Shown piece after piece: positions 4,407-59,715 of a stretch of 64,000 nucleotides of DNA. The stretch is from a virus. Its lineage: Duplodnaviria > Caudoviricetes. The first letter of the stretch is position 1. Every line of letters begins with the position of its first letter. Below the pieces are notes generated by a model that searched no databases, was not told where the DNA came from, and saw only the letters and a program-made list of their open reading frames with translations. The stretch is from positions 1-64,000 of IMG/VR virus record IMGVR_UViG_3300031998_000003. One strand, written 5' to 3'. A program made the translations under genes and the position numbers.

Positions 4407-4460
4407 GAAATTGGGAAATTTTTTCAAATAATGATCCTGAGATTTGTTCCTGATAGGAAG

Positions 4461-4474
4461 AAACCGCTTCTTAA
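4461..4474 (+). promoter_or_regulatory. Late-type phage promoter AAAC-N7-TAA
   Basis: AAAC CGCTTCT TAA, followed by RBS GGAGGTG and TTG at 4500. Confidence 0.6.
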
Positions 4475-4499
4475 AAATTCACCACTGGAGGTGTTTGAA

Positions 4500-5246
4500 T
4501 TGCGTAACACGAGATGTTTGTTTTGTCCGAAAATATTCAATGACAAACACAAATACTGTCATCATGTAGCATCTCAGCATAACGATCAAATTCCAGAGGA
4601 CCAGGAGCCTCTGGAATTTGCATATTCTCTGTTGGTTCATAAACCAGTCGGAAGACTTTGTGTTATTTGTAAAAAGAATTCTGTCAATTTCAATCGAGAG
4701 AGTTTAAAATACGACAGACTTTGTTCAAATCCCCAATGCAAAGAAGAATATGTCAAAATCATGAAAGCCCGTATGGTAAAAGTTTACGGGCAGGAACATC
4801 TGCTAAATGATGCTGATCAACAACGGAAAATGATTTCGAATCATCCCAATGCGAGAGACTTTGTATGGGATGCTCAACACAAATTCCGTATCATAGGTAC
4901 ATATGAAGAAGATTTCCTTAGAAAGCTGAAATCGATAGGTTGGAGTCCGAACGATATTATCGCTCCATCTCCAAATAACTATTGGTACAAATGGAAAGAC
5001 GGAACTCTTCATTTGTATATCCCGGATTTCTACATCCCATCTCTCTCATTGGAAGTTGAAATCAAGGAATCCGATAACCAACATCCAAGAATGGAACATT
5101 CCAGAGAGATTGAATATCTCAAAGACGCGCGAATGAAAGCTGAGACCCAGAAATCATCTATCAACTACATCAAGATCGTTGACAAGAACTATGACGAATT
5201 CATGAGAGACTACGTCAAGTCGGACCAGAACCAACCTGAGGGGTGA
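4500..5246 (+). CDS. Zn-finger plus PD-(D/E)xK (TnsA-like / head-completion-type) endonuclease
   Basis: C2H2 motif CLFC...HVASQH, CVIC...CSNPQC, and nuclease motif YIPDFY...VEIK. The TTG start at 4500 is preferred over ATG 4431 because of the RBS and promoter position. Confidence 0.65.
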   Translation: MRNTRCLFCPKIFNDKHKYCHHVASQHNDQIPEDQEPLEFAYSLLVHKPVGRLCVICKKNSVNFNRESLKYDRLCSNPQCKEEYVKIMKARMVKVYGQEHLLNDADQQRKMISNHPNARDFVWDAQHKFRIIGTYEEDFLRKLKSIGWSPNDIIAPSPNNYWYKWKDGTLHLYIPDFYIPSLSLEVEIKESDNQHPRMEHSREIEYLKDARMKAETQKSSINYIKIVDKNYDEFMRDYVKSDQNQPEG

Positions 5247-5251
5247 TCAAT

Positions 5252-5740
5252 ATGTTGGATGAAAAAGGTATCACACTTGCTGAAGTCGAACATAAATATC
5301 CCAGAGTATTTCAAGCGTTGGGATATGATGTATTAATGGATACAGATTCATTCAACAAACCACGTGTTATTTCCACATTTGAAATGTGTGTCAACGCGGT
5401 TCTTTGTTTGTTGAAGATGAAGCCTGGTCAATATCCATCGATTCCTGAATTGGGTCTGGATGTCGAACAATACTTGCATGAGTATTCTGATGACAAGACC
5501 ATACCAGCGACACTAAAAACAAAACTCTACAATCAGTTGAACATGTTGGAGTTGACTGGAATCGAAATCGAAATCATGTTTGACAGAACTGATGATGGAC
5601 ACGATGCATTACTCATTCAAATTACGGGTAATGACAAGCTTGAATATGGCGAGAAACTGTCACCCGTAATCATAGGAATTACATATGATGAACTAAATCG
5701 TTTGTATTCCAAAGTTTCATATGCCAAAGATAGGAGTTGA
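5252..5740 (+). CDS. Baseplate wedge protein, T4 gp25-like
   Basis: LLKMKPGQYPSIPELGLDVEQYLHE resembles the gp25 G-x-x-P-x-x-P-x-x-G signature; length fits. Confidence 0.6.
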   Translation: MLDEKGITLAEVEHKYPRVFQALGYDVLMDTDSFNKPRVISTFEMCVNAVLCLLKMKPGQYPSIPELGLDVEQYLHEYSDDKTIPATLKTKLYNQLNMLELTGIEIEIMFDRTDDGHDALLIQITGNDKLEYGEKLSPVIIGITYDELNRLYSKVSYAKDRS

Positions 5741-50627: not shown

Positions 50628-53600
50628 TTATTTTTCCCAGATATCGCGGACCTGTTTCTTCAGTTCCAGAAGAACCTTATTAGCAGCACCTGTAATAAGT
50701 ACTGATGGTATCATTCGTTTTAAAATACTACTCGGGGCTACAAACATTGAGATCTCTTCATCGGGTGTGGATTCTGCATACGGCTCCAATCCTTCAGGAA
50801 TGACCTCGGATATAACCTGCTTAGATGCAGCGTACACAACACACTTATCACCGACAGACACTTCATCATCATGTTCGATGTACACTTCAATCATGACGTC
50901 ACAATTGATACCCTTGATCGACGAACCCTTCAGAGGTTGAGTTGGCAGTGTATACAGTGTGTCAAGCTTATATACAGAATTGCTCTTGTCATGCTTATCA
51001 AGAATTTTTCTTTTCCTGATATTTTCTTTGAAATGATTATCTAGTAGATCGAACAATGATGGCGAAAGTTTATCCATCGACTTGATTGTGTACATTCTGA
51101 CATCAACAACACGTCCCGCATGTTTTGAACGAACGACACGTTTTGCGGTATCAGCAAGATTCGTTCCTGCTTTCTGGAACGCTTGTAGGAATGCATCGAC
51201 TGCTTTGTCACCAGTGTCACCAAGACCAAAGATGATCAACGGATCACCGATTTCAACCTCGTCACCGACTTTGACAACGAACTCCACATCATCTGTTGCT
51301 TCCAACTTGGATGCTTGTTTCATTGTAATGCTGGTAGCAAGCTTCTTGGACATTTTCTCTGTAATTAATCCAGCATCTTCGTATGTCGAATACAAACCAC
51401 AGAATGCGACTTTTGCAAGTGGTCCAATATTCATACGAACCATACCAGAAGAATCCTTCGTGAAGAACTTCTCATGATATGCCAGAATGTCATTTTGCTT
51501 GAAGGAATCATTCACTTCGAAGTTTGTTTTCAGTTTGTTGTCAACATAGAAACCGGAACCAGTATTGAATGAATATCTGTCCATAACAGGAATAGCCTGT
51601 TTGGTACCAGACTTATACTGGACGATCATGTATCCGTCACTGATCTCGAGAACTTTACCATCCTCTTTTGCCATAACAGCAAATTCATCAGACAGATAGG
51701 ATGCCGCAATTTCATCAACACCATTCGAGATCAGAACAGGTTCTGCTTCAGCAGTCGATACGATATGAGATGTTTGTGATGTTGCAATCGCATTACGAAT
51801 AGCATCATCACGAGATACCGTACCCGGTGTCAACAGCTCGGAGAAAGATGCAAGTTGTAAATCATTGTAGTCCGCATCAGGTCCCTGTGTAGATGTGTAA
51901 CCGCGAACAGATTCGATCTTTGGATCAACGGTTAACTGACGATTGATGCCAACACCTGCGGAGTTCGGTGAAGACATTGCCATCTTACCGATCATAGAGT
52001 CTTCATAGGAACGCTTCGTACGAGTGAATGCGCGTTCATTGTTAACGCCACGATATCCTTTCAAAGAAATGGTTTCCTGCTGGTGTAACTCGACCATTGG
52101 ATTCAGTGCGTTGGTCGTTGCAACGGTTTCAATATTACGAAGCTCATTGATCAGATCATTCGGGTTGACAACAAGCTTATTGTCTTTTTTCTTACTACCG
52201 ACACGGTTGTTGTATTTTGAAATTTCTCGTGCCAGAATATAATGAATGATAGCAGGAACGATTTCAGATGAACGAATACGATACAACGCTGAGTTTGTTT
52301 CTCTGGTAAAATTGTTATCAGCTAACATGTTCGCAGCATACAAAAGTAACCCAGCAACCTCATTTGGAACATGATAGTGATTGCATACATCCGCAGTGAT
52401 TGCATCCATGAAGAAATAATACATCGTGATGAATGTTGTCAACTGTGAGTATTGACGGAAGAACATGCTGTTGCAGATATCAACAAACACGGAGTTCGAA
52501 TCCATGATTGGTGTATCAAACTCATCAAAGTTGTAATCCTTCGTATTGATACGATAGAATCCGTTGAAGATCAACTGATTGACGAGTGTGTTTTTAACTG
52601 CGAGCGATTTATCTTTGAACTTGAATACCAGATATCCATTCGTATCTTCACGACCGTTGATGAACTTATATTGTGCATTCGACTTCTTTAACAGTGATGA
52701 GATTCCTTCCCATGCAGCAATCGCAACACCTAACGGAATCAATACACCGATCTTGATTTCAGCATACATTGAGATCTTCGTCGGTTTGATTTTGTCGAAT
52801 ACCTTTCTAATTTCCTCCGGAAGAACTGTCAAAAGAATCTGTGTAATCGAGCGTTCATTTCTGTCAAGACCTGTTTCTGTATTCAGAACAATTGGAACCT
52901 GATTAATCATACCGATACAGAATTCATTTTCATCGACTGTGACAAAGCCGAATTCGCGCAAGCATTGTTCACGGTTGAAGATGATCTTACAGTCAGCTTC
53001 CGGATTTTCGAAAGAATACCAACGTTTTGCATATTCATCATATTCAATCGTCGATACAAATCGAGAGTTTGTCACAGAAGAAGAACCGGTCTTGACATAT
53101 GGGTTTGTTCCATCCGGTTTTGATACGGAATTCACAGCCTTCATCATCTGTGTCAAATCAACCAACGATTTCGTATCATAACGCATGACAGAAATCTTGT
53201 TGTAGTTGGAAGTCAACATTACAAGTTTCTGGTTAATCTTCATGACCGGGATTGGGAAGTCCTGCTTGGTAATGGTATACCATGTTCCATTATGATAGAA
53301 CTTACCATTTTTCATGATCGGGACATACATATTGATGTGAGACTGTGAACCAGTACGCTTGTTCTTCAGATTGATTCGCCAGTTATTCATCAGAGATACC
53401 GGTGATGACATGTCAGTTACTTCAACACCAGTTACGGTGAATCCTTCTGGTAACTTGCCGAGATTCATAAATGTTGCAACGATATCTTGATCCATAACAT
53501 TATCTTCATAGATCTTAGAGATATTCGGGAACGATGAACCCCGCATTGCACCAGTGTTCGTCGTTGTAATACGTAATGGATGAGTTGGTGGTGGAATTGG

Positions 53601-54800
53601 AATATCAGTGACGCTACTGAGCGCGGTCATATCCAGTTTATCCAATTGGATTTTACCAACACCCTGACGCAATTTCAACTCACGTGCATTGGAAGTTGCA
53701 TTCATTGCTGTTGTAGAATTCGCAGCAGCTCTACTACCACTCAATTCCTTAGAAGCTCTGTCAACGATAGCGTTTTCAACAGGATGATCACCACCGGTTG
53801 TCAACTGTGCAGAAATGTGTTTGTAATCATCCAATTTCGATGTATCCGGTGACAAACGGTGTAACAACTGTGCATTGATCTCAAATGTCTTTGCATCATT
53901 CATTGAATCGCGTGTCGTGTTATCCGTTTTGATATCAAATCTCGCTTTCAGCGCCGCAATCGATTGGTTCAAAGACTTTGAATTCTTCGGTTCATCATCG
54001 CCGTCACCTTCAGATTTCAGATCAGCAAGCATTGCATCGATATCCTCGTCGGATGTCAAAGGCGTTCTATTTTGAGACTTGAAAGGAACACCGATCTTTT
54101 CACACATCTGACGAACACCTTCCGAATCAGAAATATCTGACCGAAGATCCATCTTATAATCCATATTTCCTGAACGGAAAATGAAGGTCGTGTCATGCGA
54201 GATTCTGGACTTTGTTCCATTGATTGCAGCCATCAGAACACCATTGATCAAATCCGAACCAACCGCATCGACGTTCTCACCGTCATAGATTTTGAATCGG
54301 TTTGAATCGATAACCCAAATCTTTTTCTTTGTATTTGGGAATAGCTGCATGAACTGAGACATCATGTTCAGAACATTCTGTTCCACATAATCATTAGACA
54401 TACCGCGGACGACTTGATTCAGTTGACGGAATACATCCGATACAGGAACATATGTATTCGTCTGATCCGTCTTGGAAAAGTTTGGTTTTGATACAACCAG
54501 CTGTGGAATCATCTTCTGTTTCTGCAAATACTTCACACGTTCATTGTACTTAGAACTATCGATACCATATTTGAAATCAGCAGTTCCAATTCTTCCCATT
54601 AAAGAATACGGGATGATAATGTTCCGATAGTTGGTTCTTGGTGGCGGCATATGCTTGATCAGTTCCAGATCATATTCATACGAGCCTGACAGAAGAAAGA
54701 CGGTAACACCATCCTTTTGATCAGGCATGCTGTATATCGGAACTTGCGTCAGGTTCTTTCCAGAAGAAAGGTCTGTTGTTTCCTGATAGAACCGTGCCAT
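50628..54800 (-). CDS. Phage multisubunit RNA polymerase beta-like subunit (probably virion RNAP)
   Basis: SPNSAGVGINRQL, DDAIRNAIATSQTSH, STYEDAGLI, VGDEVEIGDPL, VGDKC..AASKQVIS, PSSILKRM correspond to conserved beta regions; N-terminal FYQE motif. Confidence 0.88.
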   Translation of the reverse strand: MARFYQETTDLSSGKNLTQVPIYSMPDQKDGVTVFLLSGSYEYDLELIKHMPPPRTNYRNIIIPYSLMGRIGTADFKYGIDSSKYNERVKYLQKQKMIPQLVVSKPNFSKTDQTNTYVPVSDVFRQLNQVVRGMSNDYVEQNVLNMMSQFMQLFPNTKKKIWVIDSNRFKIYDGENVDAVGSDLINGVLMAAINGTKSRISHDTTFIFRSGNMDYKMDLRSDISDSEGVRQMCEKIGVPFKSQNRTPLTSDEDIDAMLADLKSEGDGDDEPKNSKSLNQSIAALKARFDIKTDNTTRDSMNDAKTFEINAQLLHRLSPDTSKLDDYKHISAQLTTGGDHPVENAIVDRASKELSGSRAAANSTTAMNATSNARELKLRQGVGKIQLDKLDMTALSSVTDIPIPPPTHPLRITTTNTGAMRGSSFPNISKIYEDNVMDQDIVATFMNLGKLPEGFTVTGVEVTDMSSPVSLMNNWRINLKNKRTGSQSHINMYVPIMKNGKFYHNGTWYTITKQDFPIPVMKINQKLVMLTSNYNKISVMRYDTKSLVDLTQMMKAVNSVSKPDGTNPYVKTGSSSVTNSRFVSTIEYDEYAKRWYSFENPEADCKIIFNREQCLREFGFVTVDENEFCIGMINQVPIVLNTETGLDRNERSITQILLTVLPEEIRKVFDKIKPTKISMYAEIKIGVLIPLGVAIAAWEGISSLLKKSNAQYKFINGREDTNGYLVFKFKDKSLAVKNTLVNQLIFNGFYRINTKDYNFDEFDTPIMDSNSVFVDICNSMFFRQYSQLTTFITMYYFFMDAITADVCNHYHVPNEVAGLLLYAANMLADNNFTRETNSALYRIRSSEIVPAIIHYILAREISKYNNRVGSKKKDNKLVVNPNDLINELRNIETVATTNALNPMVELHQQETISLKGYRGVNNERAFTRTKRSYEDSMIGKMAMSSPNSAGVGINRQLTVDPKIESVRGYTSTQGPDADYNDLQLASFSELLTPGTVSRDDAIRNAIATSQTSHIVSTAEAEPVLISNGVDEIAASYLSDEFAVMAKEDGKVLEISDGYMIVQYKSGTKQAIPVMDRYSFNTGSGFYVDNKLKTNFEVNDSFKQNDILAYHEKFFTKDSSGMVRMNIGPLAKVAFCGLYSTYEDAGLITEKMSKKLATSITMKQASKLEATDDVEFVVKVGDEVEIGDPLIIFGLGDTGDKAVDAFLQAFQKAGTNLADTAKRVVRSKHAGRVVDVRMYTIKSMDKLSPSLFDLLDNHFKENIRKRKILDKHDKSNSVYKLDTLYTLPTQPLKGSSIKGINCDVMIEVYIEHDDEVSVGDKCVVYAASKQVISEVIPEGLEPYAESTPDEEISMFVAPSSILKRMIPSVLITGAANKVLLELKKQVRDIWEK

Positions 54801-55401: not shown

Positions 55402-55420
55402 GATCTAAAAAAAAAATATT

Positions 55421-55441
55421 GAGGGGGCCTTGAGCCCCCTC
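55421..55441. terminator. Intrinsic terminator
   Basis: GAGGGGGC-CTTGA-GCCCCCTC with an A-tract to the left. Confidence 0.8.
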
Positions 55442-55447
55442 GTAGAT

Positions 55448-56032
55448 TTATTTTTCGTAAAACTCCGCGAGCAGGATGTCACCCGTCATGTTTACAAGGC
55501 GCTGAATTGTCGTAACAGAAATCACCATCTTAACACGTTCTTCATTGGATGATTTCTTCCACTTCGACACAAGCTGAGAAACGTTATTCACGATTGTCGG
55601 TTTCAATGTCTCAGTCATACGTTTGCGGATTTCAGTCGGCGTGATGTCATAACTCTGAACAACCCAATCGAACATCGGTAAGAATGACACATCACCTTCG
55701 AATTCCCATTCATGTTTCGGCATCATGTCCGAATCATATAACGTAACACAACATACCAATGTTGGTTGATGCACACGTAACGATTCAAGAATATCCGATA
55801 GCTTTGTTTGAGAAATCGTATTGGTCTCTGAGTTCAGCAACTTAACCAATCGCTCATTCATAGACCCGGGTTTAATAACGCCATCAGCAACAGCTTTGCA
55901 TAATGCCGTCATCAAAATATCATTATTCACCTTATGTGAAAAATCGATGTCAGGTTTCACAGTTGTTATGTCATGAAGATTGTCCAGGTTTTCCTTCGTA
56001 ATCATAGACATGGCTTCTTCAAGTGTCAACAT
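55448..56032 (-). CDS. Hypothetical protein (early-type)
   Basis: RBS AAAGGAGG; ATATATTATT on the - strand at 56056-56065. Confidence 0.7.
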   Translation of the reverse strand: MLTLEEAMSMITKENLDNLHDITTVKPDIDFSHKVNNDILMTALCKAVADGVIKPGSMNERLVKLLNSETNTISQTKLSDILESLRVHQPTLVCCVTLYDSDMMPKHEWEFEGDVSFLPMFDWVVQSYDITPTEIRKRMTETLKPTIVNNVSQLVSKWKKSSNEERVKMVISVTTIQRLVNMTGDILLAEFYEK

Positions 56033-56081: not shown

Positions 56082-56109
56082 ATATGGTGGGGCCGAAGCC
56101 CCACCATAT
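56082..56109 (-). terminator. Intrinsic terminator
   Basis: ATATGGTGGGGC-CGAA-GCCCCACCATAT. Confidence 0.8.
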
Positions 56110-56116
56110 ATCTCAT

Positions 56117-56962
56117 TTATTTGAAGTAATCGAAGAATCCTTCCTGGATTGGACGCGGTTGCTGCCACTTATCGATACGAGTCGCAGTGGGATCCATCTT
56201 GAACAGATAATCCATTTCGGTCAGACAGAACTCGACGATTGCAAGCTCCATGCTCTGCTCCTGTGTGATCGGAATCTTTTGTACGGCAGCTTCTGTCATG
56301 ATCGTCTGATGAATGTTCATTATGACGGATTCAGACTGGACATCCTCACCTGCAACATCACCGCCCTCAGCATTTGCATCCTGAGTTTCAGTGCTCTTTG
56401 CAGTGAGTTTCTCATCCAGATCATCGAATACCGGAGCATCGTTTGACTGGGTGATCTCCTTAGCGACATCATCAACAACCTTACGAGAAACGATGTCACG
56501 AAGCTTCTTACGAAGTGTTTCGTAATTATCGATTTCCGGGAGTTCTTTCTTCATGTTTGCAATGTCGTTTGTGAATGCATCATCCTGAACTTCAGAGACC
56601 TTGGTCGTAACCTTTTCAGTCTTGTCATCGATCTCCTGGATGATGTTATTCAGCAATGGAGACTTCAGTTTGTCACAGGACTTACAGAGATAATCATAGC
56701 ATCCACAGCCGTATTCGTCACGAATGTGCTGCATAATGGAATGATCGATCATTCCATCAAGATCCTTTGTTTCATCATGCATCATAGCCGAGATCAAGTC
56801 TCTCAGAACATACATAGAAAGCTTCTCACGAAACTTTCCAGCATCGAATGTCTGCGGCTGTTTGACACCCATGTTCTGATGCATGGTAGAATTGACGGTA
56901 TTCGGGAATTTGTTATTCGCACCGTCAATGATATTATCGAGCATGCTCTTAATATCGGGCAT
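56117..56962 (-). CDS. Probable head/virion protein
   Basis: Follows the 886-aa head protein; IIQE and PIQEGFF motifs. Confidence 0.6.
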   Translation of the reverse strand: MPDIKSMLDNIIDGANNKFPNTVNSTMHQNMGVKQPQTFDAGKFREKLSMYVLRDLISAMMHDETKDLDGMIDHSIMQHIRDEYGCGCYDYLCKSCDKLKSPLLNNIIQEIDDKTEKVTTKVSEVQDDAFTNDIANMKKELPEIDNYETLRKKLRDIVSRKVVDDVAKEITQSNDAPVFDDLDEKLTAKSTETQDANAEGGDVAGEDVQSESVIMNIHQTIMTEAAVQKIPITQEQSMELAIVEFCLTEMDYLFKMDPTATRIDKWQQPRPIQEGFFDYFK

Positions 56963-56977
56963 TATGATTCACTCCTT

Positions 56978-59638
56978 TCAATTTGATTTGAATTTCGACA
57001 CTAGGTCTTTTGCAAAGTCTGCAATTGTTTGAGCAGCTCTCATAATTGCAATACCCTTTTTCTTATGAATCAGATCCGGAGCACCATTCACAACTGGAGT
57101 TGCTTCAACATTTGTGCCTTGTGCAGAAACCTTAATGGCAAGCTCAGGTTTTTCTTTTGATTTCATCGTGAATGTTGGAATCATTGATCCACCAATGAAA
57201 TCAAATGCATCAGACAACATATTTCTCAACTGGTTTTGAACATTGAGAAGTGCTGCCGATGTTGCCGCCTCTTGTACAAGTGCTGACTCTTGAACGGAAT
57301 CATCGCTGGATAGCTTCTTTTTGAAGTCATCAAAAGTTTTTGCAATAAAGATGAGACGTTTGCCCTCAGGATTATCATGAATATTTATGAACATGCGCTC
57401 ATCGGACTTGGATGAATTACCCATGAGGATTTCATTACCAAAGCCATCATTTGCGAGTGCAATGAACTTACCACCATTGCCATCATAATCAAACGGATTT
57501 TCGATACTTCTCTCAATCTGTTTGGGTCCATAGAATTCGAAAGAACCGTGACGACTGTTTTTGTCATGTTTGACAGTAAAAGTCCCGGACTCTTCGTTGA
57601 CGAATTTCTTATAACTATCAGGGAGTTTCCGTCCGAGTTTATTTTCAACTGTGGTGAAGTCCAGACTCCTCGGTGCCGCAGCTTCTTGAACAGGTTTACC
57701 AGGATGATTCTTTTCAACCAGTTTCGCAACACCGGTTGCTTGTTGGACAAATGCTCGGATGAGACGCTTCGTTGCGTCAACACCGCTCTTATCCTGATCT
57801 GTACGCATGACCGCCATCAGATCAGATAGAAGCGCATTCAATTTCAGGAGCTGTTTGGTCTCTTCCTCATTGAAGACATCTTTCATTTTGGAAGCCTTGT
57901 GAACAACACGGTTCAGCTGTTTACCTTCCTTGCGGAATTCAGCACACAGCATTTCGATTTCCATGTCGCTGTCATTTAGGATTCCGAGCGTTTTTCTGAG
58001 GTGAATATCAAGCTCCTTACCGATATTACCTCGCGTCAGAAAAAAAGCTTCCTGAACTCCTTCGTCACCAGCTGGAAGTTCCGGAGCATTACCGTCAGGA
58101 GAATTCATGAAATCCTTTAGCTGCTGAACAGTCATCTTCTTCAGCTTTTCCTGACCTTGGGCAAGAAGCTCTTCGATTGTCATATTGTCGACATCAACAT
58201 CGGATGTTGCAGCTGCTTCATCACCGGCTGTATCCTCGCTGTTTGCATCAGCATCACCGATATCAGCATTGACATCATCTTCAGTTGGCATGTCGGTAGA
58301 ATCGATTGCGGAATCAGCGTCATTAGAACCATCATCGATACCATCGACATTCAGGCCCTCGTCTTCAGCCGCAGCATTCTTGGTTTCGTCAGAAACCTTT
58401 TCAGCAATCTCATCGGAAACGTTGTTTGGATCAGCAATTTCTTTCGGAGCAGCGTCACCTTCAGCAGGTGGTGCAGCATTCTCAGCTTCAGGAGCAGCTG
58501 CATTCGCATCAGGTTGTGTATTTTCATCACCGAATGAAACACTGCCGCCAGCAGATTCTGGAGTAGGCGCGGCATTCGGATCACCGAAGTCAATGGCTTC
58601 CTGAATATAATCGAATCTGTTACGTGAGAAACGATTTCTGACAACCGGCTCAGCTTGTGCAGCTTCCATCGCCATCTGTTCTTTGATGATCTGACGAGCT
58701 TTCTTTGGGGTGATTGCCTTTAGGCTTTCGATCTTACCAGGATTGATCTGCTTAAACTGATTATCGGAAGCATTGGTGAGTTTTCCATCACCCTTCTTTC
58801 CCTTCTTGATAACCATCTCCCAGCTCAAGAACTTCTTATCATCAACACCGTCAATCTCGAATTCGATCGCGATACAATAGCGATCAATCGGATCAACAGG
58901 AACGATGAGGGCTGTTGGAGTGACCTTGTCCCAGATCTCCTCAACGGACTTGCAGCCGCACATACCACCCCACGCATCAAATGCAACTTCCTGGCATGCG
59001 ATTGTACGAGACTGATCGGACATGAAGATCTGGATTGCTTCAAGCTGCTTATGAGTGATACGGTTCTTCCTATCGACCTGATATGCAACTGAGAGTTTCA
59101 CATAATGGTGATCATTGCCCTTGTAGCTTCCGAAATCCATTGTAACAGAAGACGGTACACGTTTATCATCGATCGGAATCTTGTCGAAGCCGAAGAGTCC
59201 TTCCTGAATCAGATAATCACGATACTTCTGATACTCGGCTTCAGCATATGTCTTACACCGTGACTCAAAGACGCCTTGAGTTTCACGCCCGAACGGCACA
59301 AGCGTATCACATGCTTCCTGATAGAAGTCGTCAAACGTCTTCATCAGGCCGAGATCTACGGATTCCTGAACAGTCGCATCCATTGGAACATCAACAACAC
59401 GACCGTCCAACAGGTTCAACTCGACGGATGTGATTTCCGGATTGTCTTCAAGCGGAATATCAACATTCGCGAATTGACGTGGACCGTTTGTTGCAGTTCC
59501 TTCAAGCGACAAGTCGTCAAACTCTTGGAAGAGATGTGCGCAATCCAGAATAGCTTGGTCCATCAGCTGCTCCTGAACTGCTTCTTGCTGTGGTGCAGGG
59601 TTCATTTCTTGCAGCTGTTGCTTAATGTAATCAAGCAT
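56978..59638 (-). CDS. Probable head polyprotein with many xQE motifs, an acidic linker and a SUKH (SMI1/KNR4) domain
   Basis: About 14 QE dipeptides, most preceded by V/I/Y/F/L; VENKLGRKLPDSYKKFV...FIALANDGFGN is a SMI1/KNR4 signature. Confidence 0.72.
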   Translation of the reverse strand: MLDYIKQQLQEMNPAPQQEAVQEQLMDQAILDCAHLFQEFDDLSLEGTATNGPRQFANVDIPLEDNPEITSVELNLLDGRVVDVPMDATVQESVDLGLMKTFDDFYQEACDTLVPFGRETQGVFESRCKTYAEAEYQKYRDYLIQEGLFGFDKIPIDDKRVPSSVTMDFGSYKGNDHHYVKLSVAYQVDRKNRITHKQLEAIQIFMSDQSRTIACQEVAFDAWGGMCGCKSVEEIWDKVTPTALIVPVDPIDRYCIAIEFEIDGVDDKKFLSWEMVIKKGKKGDGKLTNASDNQFKQINPGKIESLKAITPKKARQIIKEQMAMEAAQAEPVVRNRFSRNRFDYIQEAIDFGDPNAAPTPESAGGSVSFGDENTQPDANAAAPEAENAAPPAEGDAAPKEIADPNNVSDEIAEKVSDETKNAAAEDEGLNVDGIDDGSNDADSAIDSTDMPTEDDVNADIGDADANSEDTAGDEAAATSDVDVDNMTIEELLAQGQEKLKKMTVQQLKDFMNSPDGNAPELPAGDEGVQEAFFLTRGNIGKELDIHLRKTLGILNDSDMEIEMLCAEFRKEGKQLNRVVHKASKMKDVFNEEETKQLLKLNALLSDLMAVMRTDQDKSGVDATKRLIRAFVQQATGVAKLVEKNHPGKPVQEAAAPRSLDFTTVENKLGRKLPDSYKKFVNEESGTFTVKHDKNSRHGSFEFYGPKQIERSIENPFDYDGNGGKFIALANDGFGNEILMGNSSKSDERMFINIHDNPEGKRLIFIAKTFDDFKKKLSSDDSVQESALVQEAATSAALLNVQNQLRNMLSDAFDFIGGSMIPTFTMKSKEKPELAIKVSAQGTNVEATPVVNGAPDLIHKKKGIAIMRAAQTIADFAKDLVSKFKSN

Positions 59639-59715
59639 TTACTATCGCTCCTTTTCATTAAAATTTTTATGAATGAAAACATACATTGTTTTCAAGAACG
59701 GCGAGGATATACGAT

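Follow-up and report, generated by a model that had tools for sequence, protein, structure and literature searches.

What is a SUKH domain doing inside a large phage protein in which the same hydrophobic-Gln-Glu motif recurs again and again, and what becomes of that protein? The question is raised by P0001, an 886-amino-acid (aa) open reading frame (ORF) on the minus strand of a 64,000-nt stretch of DNA (positions 1-64,000 of the Caudoviricetes record IMGVR_UViG_3300031998_000003; hereafter, the window). The source genome is 248,669 bp long, with a CheckV completeness estimate of 92% and 228 called ORFs. The phage is a giant (jumbo, ~250 kb) uncultured rumen phage and a distant relative of AR9/phiKZ, and direct comparisons with AR9 are consistent with this distance. 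The window contains phiKZ/AR9-type split RNA polymerase (RNAP) subunits and a divergent family-B DNA polymerase, and the relatives of the phage are metagenomic contigs of ~230-295 kb. A reading made earlier from the sequence only had proposed that P0001 is a head polyprotein whose accessory domains are cut out by the prohead protease, packaged, and injected. Our analyses favor a version of this idea, to which we give a probability of roughly 0.55: P0001 would be a capsid-internal carrier that is diced by the prohead protease, freeing C-terminal modules for ejection.

All ten of the motifs listed in the sequence-only reading were located in P0001, where the Glu of Gln-Glu (QE) falls at residues 11, 19, 23, 39, 92, 108, 146, 217, 347, 497, 530, 652, 784, and 790. 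Compared with 20,000 shuffles of its own sequence, P0001 is strongly enriched in QE (14 observed, 3.6 expected), in [VILFYM]QE (11 observed, 0.99 expected), and in [VILFYM]QE[ASG] (8 observed, 0.21 expected); none of the 20,000 shuffles matched any of these three counts. Counted over all of the genome's proteins, hydrophobic-QE is densest in P0001 (rank 1 of 228 ORFs; 12.4 per 1000 aa vs. 1.03 genome-wide), while the QE dipeptide as such shows no genome-wide enrichment (164 observed vs. 159 expected).

The motif is also conserved among homologues. From the 200 relatives that a word-indexed search returned, the best 120 were taken to make, with P0001, a set of 121 sequences (33-95% overall identity). 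In this set, QE is kept at query positions 38, 91, 107, 145, 346, 529, and 651 in 116, 105, 98, 106, 120, 107, and 74 sequences, respectively. The Gln is swapped now and then for Asn, Glu, Ser, or His in the same alignment columns, which fits the T4 rule of hydrophobic-any residue-Glu, with Gln preferred. An exhaustive profile search against 1.84 billion representatives found 173 family members (50% identity representatives) and none outside the carrier family, and nothing resembling the carrier locus was found in INPHARED (50,697 phage records; tblastn and megablast).

On sequence comparison, the family is a conserved ~650-aa carrier with interchangeable C-terminal modules. All-against-all BLAST of the homologues distinguished at least 17 module families after the four-helix bundle that ends the carrier core. 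There is no module at all in 38 of 114 homologues. Pfam recognizes SUKH (~22 proteins), DUF6985 (alone or after SUKH), and DUF1963/TYPP (5 proteins), and the remaining module families have no Pfam match. Tandem tails exist (e.g., SUKH-like + SUKH + DUF6985), and multi-module homologues have (K)PVQE/[AGS] at every joint, often followed by Phe-Phe (a slash within a motif marks the position after the Glu). In three homologues (P0019-P0021), the core is followed by PVNE/FADETDMVQE/ and then by the same last module as in P0001, without SUKH; relative to these, P0001 and P0003 have SUKH inserted cleanly between two VQE sites. One short relative of the SUKH module was found, a 252-aa protein that is 75% identical over the module, and beyond it there were no close stand-alone relatives. 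In the comparison of homologues that the sequence-only reading had proposed, modules are gained, lost, and swapped at QE sites, and the SUKH insertion is bounded exactly by VQE. The broader wording of that reading, that the phage inserts accessory domains into head proteins, is overgeneral for this gene, as what we see is a single, dedicated family of carriers whose C-terminus is polymorphic.

Core pairs with 96-99% identity can differ in their tails. For example, P0030 and P0049 share 96% identity over residues 1-634, ending exactly at ...KNPK[TP]VQEA, after which the tails are unrelated (SUKH + DUF6985 vs. an unassigned module + DUF1963). This is a polymorphic cassette-swapping architecture, with unrelated tails on near-identical backbones and the break at the VQE junction. 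Of the homologues with a tail, 68 of 76 have the junction QE, vs. 7 of 38 of those without one (Fisher p = 5e-14, with no correction for relatedness), and tail-less genes on long contigs stop straight after the bundle, without a junction QE. Since the junction QE tracks the presence of a tail, the site belongs with the cargo rather than with the bundle.

The same junctions raise the alternative that the motif is never cut, and that hydrophobic-Gln-Glu(-Gly-Phe-Phe) is instead a linker, a docking motif, or the footprint of a recombination cassette in a protein that acts as a single chain. The junction does extend beyond a minimal protease site: IVESKNPKPVQEAFF occurs at each of the two P0049 junctions, and the DNA GTTCAAGAA, followed by GGTTTCTTC, recurs at various junctions and in various phages. 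Several proteins terminate in VQE/GFFxx, and some of the conserved sites are helical in the structure model. However, the same three-residue core is found in unrelated contexts (the protease N-terminus, the capsid protein at ~120-130, and a polymerase leader, all described below) without a common linker or cassette, two polymerase orthologues begin right after the motif, and the motif obeys the T4-type rule, with Gln replaceable by Asn, Glu, Ser, or His. We therefore regard an uncut element as quite improbable. Recombination and protease roles are compatible, and the junction may well serve both.

Two further observations concern the ends of homologous proteins. Several carrier homologues (loci L015 and L022) have a QE-G/S-F-F ending at the C-terminus, as if a junction remnant followed the last module. 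Four proteins (P0074, P0075, P0081, and P0090) stop at ...QE[AS]FF, after site 530, and P0227 starts just past it (MTRGNIGKELD); we set aside the reading of these as natural splits at site 530 as a frameshift is no less likely, given the T-run in the Phe-Phe codons.

To what extent the motif resembles a prohead-protease site can be judged from five related ~250-kb genomes that were searched for the protease and the capsid protein (four capsid proteins). All five encode a protease of ~290 aa (phrog_3014, E-values 1e-9 to 1e-14) of the AR9 g114 and T4 gp21 type, with a weak match to PF03420, the T4/AR9 family. Each of these proteases has the His and Ser motifs (ELDHP or ELNHP, and PSFSVRLLG), and each has TAC[FY][VI]QE/[AS]P within ~20 residues of its N-terminus. 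All four capsid proteins contain SF[LMV][VI]QE/SYNVSNY at residue 118-130 and also carry TWFQE near residue 15-23. In SPN3US, which is the jumbo phage studied best in this respect, the capsid protein is cut at ATE-130 (Table 2 of PMC10052503) and the abundant ejection proteins at AQE-95, AQE-124, AQE-125, and further sites; the protease cleaves itself, and long propeptides are cut repeatedly (PMC10052503).

Within the window, the virion RNAP beta subunit, which is the orthologue of AR9 g189 ("virion RNAP subunit"), starts MARFYQE/TTDLS, i.e., with a 7-residue leader MARFYQE (nt 54780-54800) before a conserved (A/T)-x-D-L. Six of nine sequences (the window and five of eight orthologues) have the leader motif, and two orthologues without the leader start M-AVDF, at the residue right after the motif. 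Altogether, this suggests that hydrophobic-Gln-Glu followed by a small residue (Ala, Gly, or Ser) is very probably the cleavage site of the T4/AR9-type prohead protease in this clade, and the protease, capsid protein, and polymerase leader of the relatives thus give comparative support to what had been proposed for the motif. Because such proteases work inside the prohead, this evidence indirectly points to P0001 as a head-internal substrate.

The same comparison bears on the alternative of a cytoplasmic polyprotein that is linked to replication or transcription, is processed by some other protease, and never enters the capsid. The carrier gene does adjoin, and diverge from, the family-B DNA polymerase gene, and its product is without similarity to known virion proteins. 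Yet the motif is common to the capsid protein and the head protease, the conserved co-directional gene block ends in a virion polymerase subunit, and no other protease candidate was found. One ORF of 593 aa (G000:C1:178820-180601, minus strand) has a weak match to phrog_3894 ("head maturation protease"; E-value 1.7e-6), an acidic N-terminus, and two Cys-x2-Cys pairs, but it has no protease motifs and was rejected as a protease. A cytoplasmic role is thus very unlikely in our view.

On the phage's own contig, searches with PF03420, phrog_3014, phrog_138, phrog_20655, the AR9 protease and capsid protein (BLAST), and the relatives' proteins (tblastn) found no full protease gene and no capsid gene, so the protease is known from the relatives only. 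The sole protease-like sequence on the contig is a 112-aa ORF outside the window (L001; G000:C1:79201-79350, minus strand), matched by PF03420 and phrog_3014. In it, a very basic leader is joined to just the N-terminal half, with the catalytic His, of a gp21-type protease (NRNGRIY...LGEIDHP); the Ser half is absent downstream. One gene that sits beside the protease in the relatives has its orthologue here in a 165-aa ORF at 5243-5740. The ORF preceding it, a Cys-rich ORF of 271 aa at 4431-5246, was considered as a protease and rejected.

Other proteins with the motif were seen as well. In AR9 (KU878088), LFQEE and SLQEE occur in the first 50 residues of the virion protein g193 (156730-158691), and ILQEAE and QIQEK lie near the N-terminus of the protease g114 (88502-89653); judging by these motifs, the Gln-Glu preference may also hold for the protease of AR9 itself. 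In the genome studied here, a 794-aa "virion structural protein" (phrog_3004; G000:C1:168012-170396, plus strand) has IQEI at 37, VQES at 238, VQEA at 341, and VQEI at 550, which makes it a further candidate substrate.

We examined the domain layout of P0001 with AlphaFold models built on the 121-sequence alignment and with domain A modeled alone (Table 1). The N-terminus (MLDYIK...) is conserved among homologues and has no recognizable likeness to the polymerase leader or to other proteins. In both models, residues 95-146 form a helical hairpin that is followed by a low-confidence loop. The body of the beta-rich domain A (147-335) and the four-helix bundle (533-645) are both modeled with a predicted local distance difference test (pLDDT) score of ~90. 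The acidic segment between them includes an invariant short motif at 405-414 (N405, V407, S408, I411, and K414 in 48 rows) and a small helical pair at 483-511. Domain A modeled alone (pLDDT 84.8) had no PDB match in Foldseek (best E-value 0.23), and VIA-align gave it a Z of 6.2 at most, limited to the helical hairpin. The bundle matched generic bundles only (best Z 11.8, which is under the informative level for helical bundles). A BFVD structure search returned noise only, an ESM Atlas search had no usable match, and the profile of the carrier core gave only chance matches to PDB sequences.

The bounds that the sequence-only reading gave to the SUKH module, from KPVQE/A to SVQE/S, proved accurate, and two Pfam models match the domain above threshold: SMI1_KNR4 (PF09346), over residues 661-772, with 40.7 bits for a cut-off of 25.4, and SUKH_6 (PF14568), with 31.9 bits for a cut-off of 27. 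The secondary-structure order of the module is as expected for SUKH, with a pLDDT of ~60, and its third-ranked Foldseek match is 3d5p_A, an SMI1/KNR4 protein of Bacteroides fragilis (probability 0.99 and target TM-score 0.54, but E-value 0.04). The LVQE/A or MVQE/A site that precedes the last module, M5, also stands before M5 in P0019-P0021. Low-confidence stretches (pLDDT <50) at 13-23, 85-93, 337-349, 513-532, 646-657, and 780-798 coincide with sites 19/23, 92, 347, 530, 652, and 784/790. The motifs were said to fall at domain boundaries, and this is true of six of the eight hydrophobic-QE sites followed by Ala, Gly, or Ser, which lie in low-confidence linkers separating folded domains, but not of sites 108 and 146, which are in or at the end of helices.

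Table 1. Features of the carrier locus, with coordinates in the window; aa, amino acids
Feature	Residues	Coordinates	Strand	Size	Remarks
P0001, whole ORF: carrier core (residues 1-652) and two cargo modules	1-886	56978..59638	minus	886 aa	
N-terminal helical region	1-146	59201..59638	minus		sites FQE (39), VQE/S (92), YQE/A (108), IQE/G (146); QE conserved in 98-116 of 121
Domain A, beta-rich body	147-347	58598..59200	minus		ends YIQE/AIDFG (Glu347); site in 120 of 121
Acidic disordered segment	348-530	58049..58597	minus		ends GVQE/AFF (Glu530); site in 107 of 121
Four-helix bundle, last core domain	531-652	57683..58048	minus		modeled; ends KPVQE/A (Glu652), the cargo junction (junction QE)
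SUKH (SMI1/KNR4) module	653-784	57287..57682	minus		Pfam; ends SVQE/S
SALVQE, second site six residues past the first	785-790	57269..57286	minus		motif
C-terminal module M5	791-886	56981..57268	minus	96 aa	in P0001-P0003 (after SUKH) and P0019-P0021 (directly after core)
Gene always adjoining the carrier on its downstream side		56117..56962	minus	281 aa	synteny in ~20 loci
Gene of the conserved block		55448..56032	minus	194 aa	synteny
Virion RNAP beta subunit		50628..54800	minus	1390 aa	orthologue of AR9 g189 ("virion RNAP subunit")
Promoter-like element AACAATGTATGT		59679..59690	minus		52 nt upstream of the carrier start codon; resembles element in orthologous loci

Taken together, these results can be read as a series of steps, for which we infer the head location, the cleavage, the ejection, and the SUKH target. 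The ~650-aa core (helical region, beta-rich domain, acidic disordered segment, and four-helix bundle) would bring the chain into the prohead, where the T4-type serine prohead protease would cut after the Glu of hydrophobic-Gln-Glu before Ala, Gly, or Ser. The N-terminal part would be diced, with residues 1-146 cut into small peptides, and the beta-rich body, the acidic segment, the bundle, and each cargo module would be separated; in P0001, the small proteins freed would be a 132-aa SUKH domain and the 96-aa module M5. Going by the analogy of T4 internal proteins and phiKZ/SPN3US ejection proteins, the modules set free may then pass out of the capsid together with the DNA and act as soon as infection starts, and the SUKH module would, again by analogy, most likely bind and block a host toxin-type defense effector. 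The loading and cutting steps are based on the motif evidence, and the ejection and SUKH-blocking steps on analogy. The conserved gene block ends in a virion RNAP subunit, which supports the carrier reading. The recognizable cargo domains (SUKH, DUF6985, and DUF1963) are all of the binding type, and none is an enzyme. Among the immunity domains of polymorphic toxin systems, SUKH is the most versatile one, and it is also found in "polyimmunity" fusions (PMC3482391), and DUF1963/TYPP has been proposed to mediate protein-protein interactions (PMC4275035).

Several observations weigh against the carrier reading. The phage's own contig, at 92% completeness, holds only the 112-aa fragment of a protease and no capsid gene. 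Two of the sites, 108 and 146, fall within or at the end of confidently predicted hairpin helices, and the residue after site 39 is Leu or Phe rather than a small residue, so not every conserved QE need be cut. The SUKH part is modeled at low pLDDT (~60). The carrier core has no detectable relative in AR9 (whole-genome profile), in the 50,697 phage records (tblastn/megablast), in PHROGs, or in PDB sequences, so it is the motif that argues for a head location. Finally, all of the substrate cleavages in SPN3US remove N-terminal propeptides (PMC10052503), and the release of C-terminal modules would be a departure from this.

An alternative is a different fate inside the head, in which P0001 is a scaffold or core protein that enters the prohead and is degraded and expelled at maturation. 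The modules would then act in the producing cell or in the prohead rather than as injected anti-defense factors; they could confer self-immunity by silencing the phage's own packaged toxin-like enzymes, or they could be adaptors that recruit cargo. The core occurs throughout the clade as a single-copy gene and includes an acidic disordered segment, its multiple sites in the N-terminal half are as in scaffold/core proteins, and the 38 of 114 cargo-free homologues speak for a function of the core itself. The same genome also encodes a 1146-aa protein with acetyltransferase-type PHROG matches and FQEG and IQEN motifs, and the canonical role of SUKH is to protect the toxin producer (PMC3482391). 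On the other hand, the fast turnover of cargo on near-identical carriers fits an arms race with variable hosts better than self-protection against conserved enzymes, and tandem, "polyimmunity"-like tails (SUKH-like + SUKH + DUF6985) occur. We consider the scaffold explanation rather unlikely and continue with the carrier that releases its modules for ejection.

Such a carrier would resemble several known systems. The T4 proteins IPI, IPII, IPIII, and Alt, which are processed by gp21, are accessory proteins that are loaded into the prohead, cut after the Glu of hydrophobic-any residue-Glu, and injected with the DNA, as is proposed here. IPI* blocks a restriction system. For Alt, both packaging and injection along with DNA are described (PMC5512222). 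P0001 likewise appears to have a T4-type cleavage motif at its putative processing boundaries, shared with the capsid protein and the protease of the clade. The T4 system differs in using a targeting peptide of ~10 residues at the N-terminus of separate small proteins, whereas here there is a 650-aa carrier with several C-terminal cargo modules, a site at every joint, and a strong preference for Gln at P2.

The inner-body or ejection proteins of phiKZ, 201phi2-1, and SPN3US (e.g., SPN3US gp53 and gp54), for which the proteases are gp175/gp245, have long acidic N-terminal regions with several Glu cut sites and can be likened to the carrier; in SPN3US, the capsid-protein propeptide is ~130 residues and AQE sites are frequent (PMC10052503). 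However, P3 in the carrier is a bulky hydrophobic residue and not Ala, Ser, or Gly, and SPN3US loses N-terminal propeptides only, whereas the carrier would release C-terminal modules from a polymorphic tail. P0001 showed no membership in phiKZ-like virion families (Pfam, SUKH only; PHROG, none; tblastn against the 50,697 phage records, none). By analogy, then, P0001 would work like T4 internal proteins and phiKZ/SPN3US ejection proteins, yet by sequence it is a member of neither family.

Two other groups of proteins share parts of this design. Polyvalent proteins (Iyer et al. 2017, PMC5512222) are also multidomain and are predicted to be packaged and delivered with DNA, to be processed into separate effectors, and to have a part in host-parasite conflict. 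They mostly contain enzymatic domains and self-processing zincin-type peptidases, whereas the carrier has non-enzymatic binding domains and the head protease is proposed to process it. They combine several effector-enzyme or anti-restriction domains, whereas Pfam detected only SUKH, DUF6985, and DUF1963 in the carrier family, and neither SUKH nor immunity proteins are mentioned in PMC5512222. Polymorphic toxins (Zhang et al. 2011/2012; PMC3113570, PMC3482391) similarly have a conserved N-terminal trafficking part and a hypervariable, recombining C-terminal module, and the associated polyimmunity proteins are tandem fusions of SUKH with other domains. They differ in that the variable end of the carrier consists of immunity-type rather than toxin domains, the proposed route is the phage capsid, and there is no adjacent toxin gene. 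The SUKH module is fused to a phage protein, and no adjacent or neutralized cognate toxin, as is typical of Imm-SUKH, was found. In full-text searches of a limited literature collection, SUKH or other immunity-type domains were nowhere described as capsid cargo.

More tentatively, there is a possibility that this clade of jumbo phages from gut and rumen runs a polymorphic "counter-toxin" delivery system, in which a dedicated capsid carrier accumulates and swaps immunity-type binding modules at a junction cassette that doubles as a head-protease site. If so, each virion would inject strain-specific, ready-made inhibitors before any phage gene expression, directed at host abortive-infection or polymorphic-toxin effectors and drawn from SUKH, DUF6985, TYPP/DUF1963, and a dozen unassigned modules. 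Bacterial polymorphic toxins would have their mirror image in such a system.

Pre-packaged, injected proteins are the sole weapons that a phage has before gene expression. To our knowledge, few of them are known, namely, T4 IPI* and Alt, P1 Dar, and virion polymerases. If the carrier reading is true, capsid cargo in this clade would be organized like a polymorphic toxin locus, with one carrier, a protease-site junction, and quickly exchanged modules from bacterial immunity proteins. The analysis yields, for a jumbo-phage clade that is uncultured, a testable cleavage code (hydrophobic-Gln-Glu before Ala, Gly, or Ser) and a catalogue of ~17 candidate injected modules, most without an assigned function. 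It also hints at a principle by which phage heads might be designed to take up foreign proteins.

Gene order around the carrier is fixed in ~20 loci (the neighborhood comparison covered IMG/VR loci): the divergent DNA polymerase gene, the carrier, a ~265-aa gene, a ~200-aa gene, and the virion RNAP beta gene. The immediate neighbors of the carrier in the window are the 281-aa ORF and the DNA polymerase gene, and neither side has a toxin gene. The 281-aa neighbor ends in PIQE/GFFDYFK, and one of its orthologues shares the QE-G/S-F-F ending. In AR9, the 653-aa virion protein g193 corresponds in position, its gene likewise lying upstream of that for virion RNAP beta; it was tried as a carrier homologue and set aside (hhalign probability 0.3).

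The AR9-type late promoter AACA-N6-TW was not found as such upstream of the carrier gene, and this pattern is just ~2-fold enriched upstream of ORFs. In most relatives (loci L014-L034), the carrier gene is preceded, at a distance of 45-55 nt, by a conserved A-rich/ATAT element (AAYRATRTRYRT). The genome has 15 copies of this element, including those upstream of an 851-aa ORF (156871-159426) and of the 593-aa ORF (178820-180601). Strong GC-rich hairpins follow the 281-aa gene (56082-56109) and the 194-aa gene (55420-55442); both were read as terminator-like on both strands, and a T-run tail on the minus (gene) strand is clear only at 55420-55442. Given these hairpins, the four-gene block may not form one transcript.

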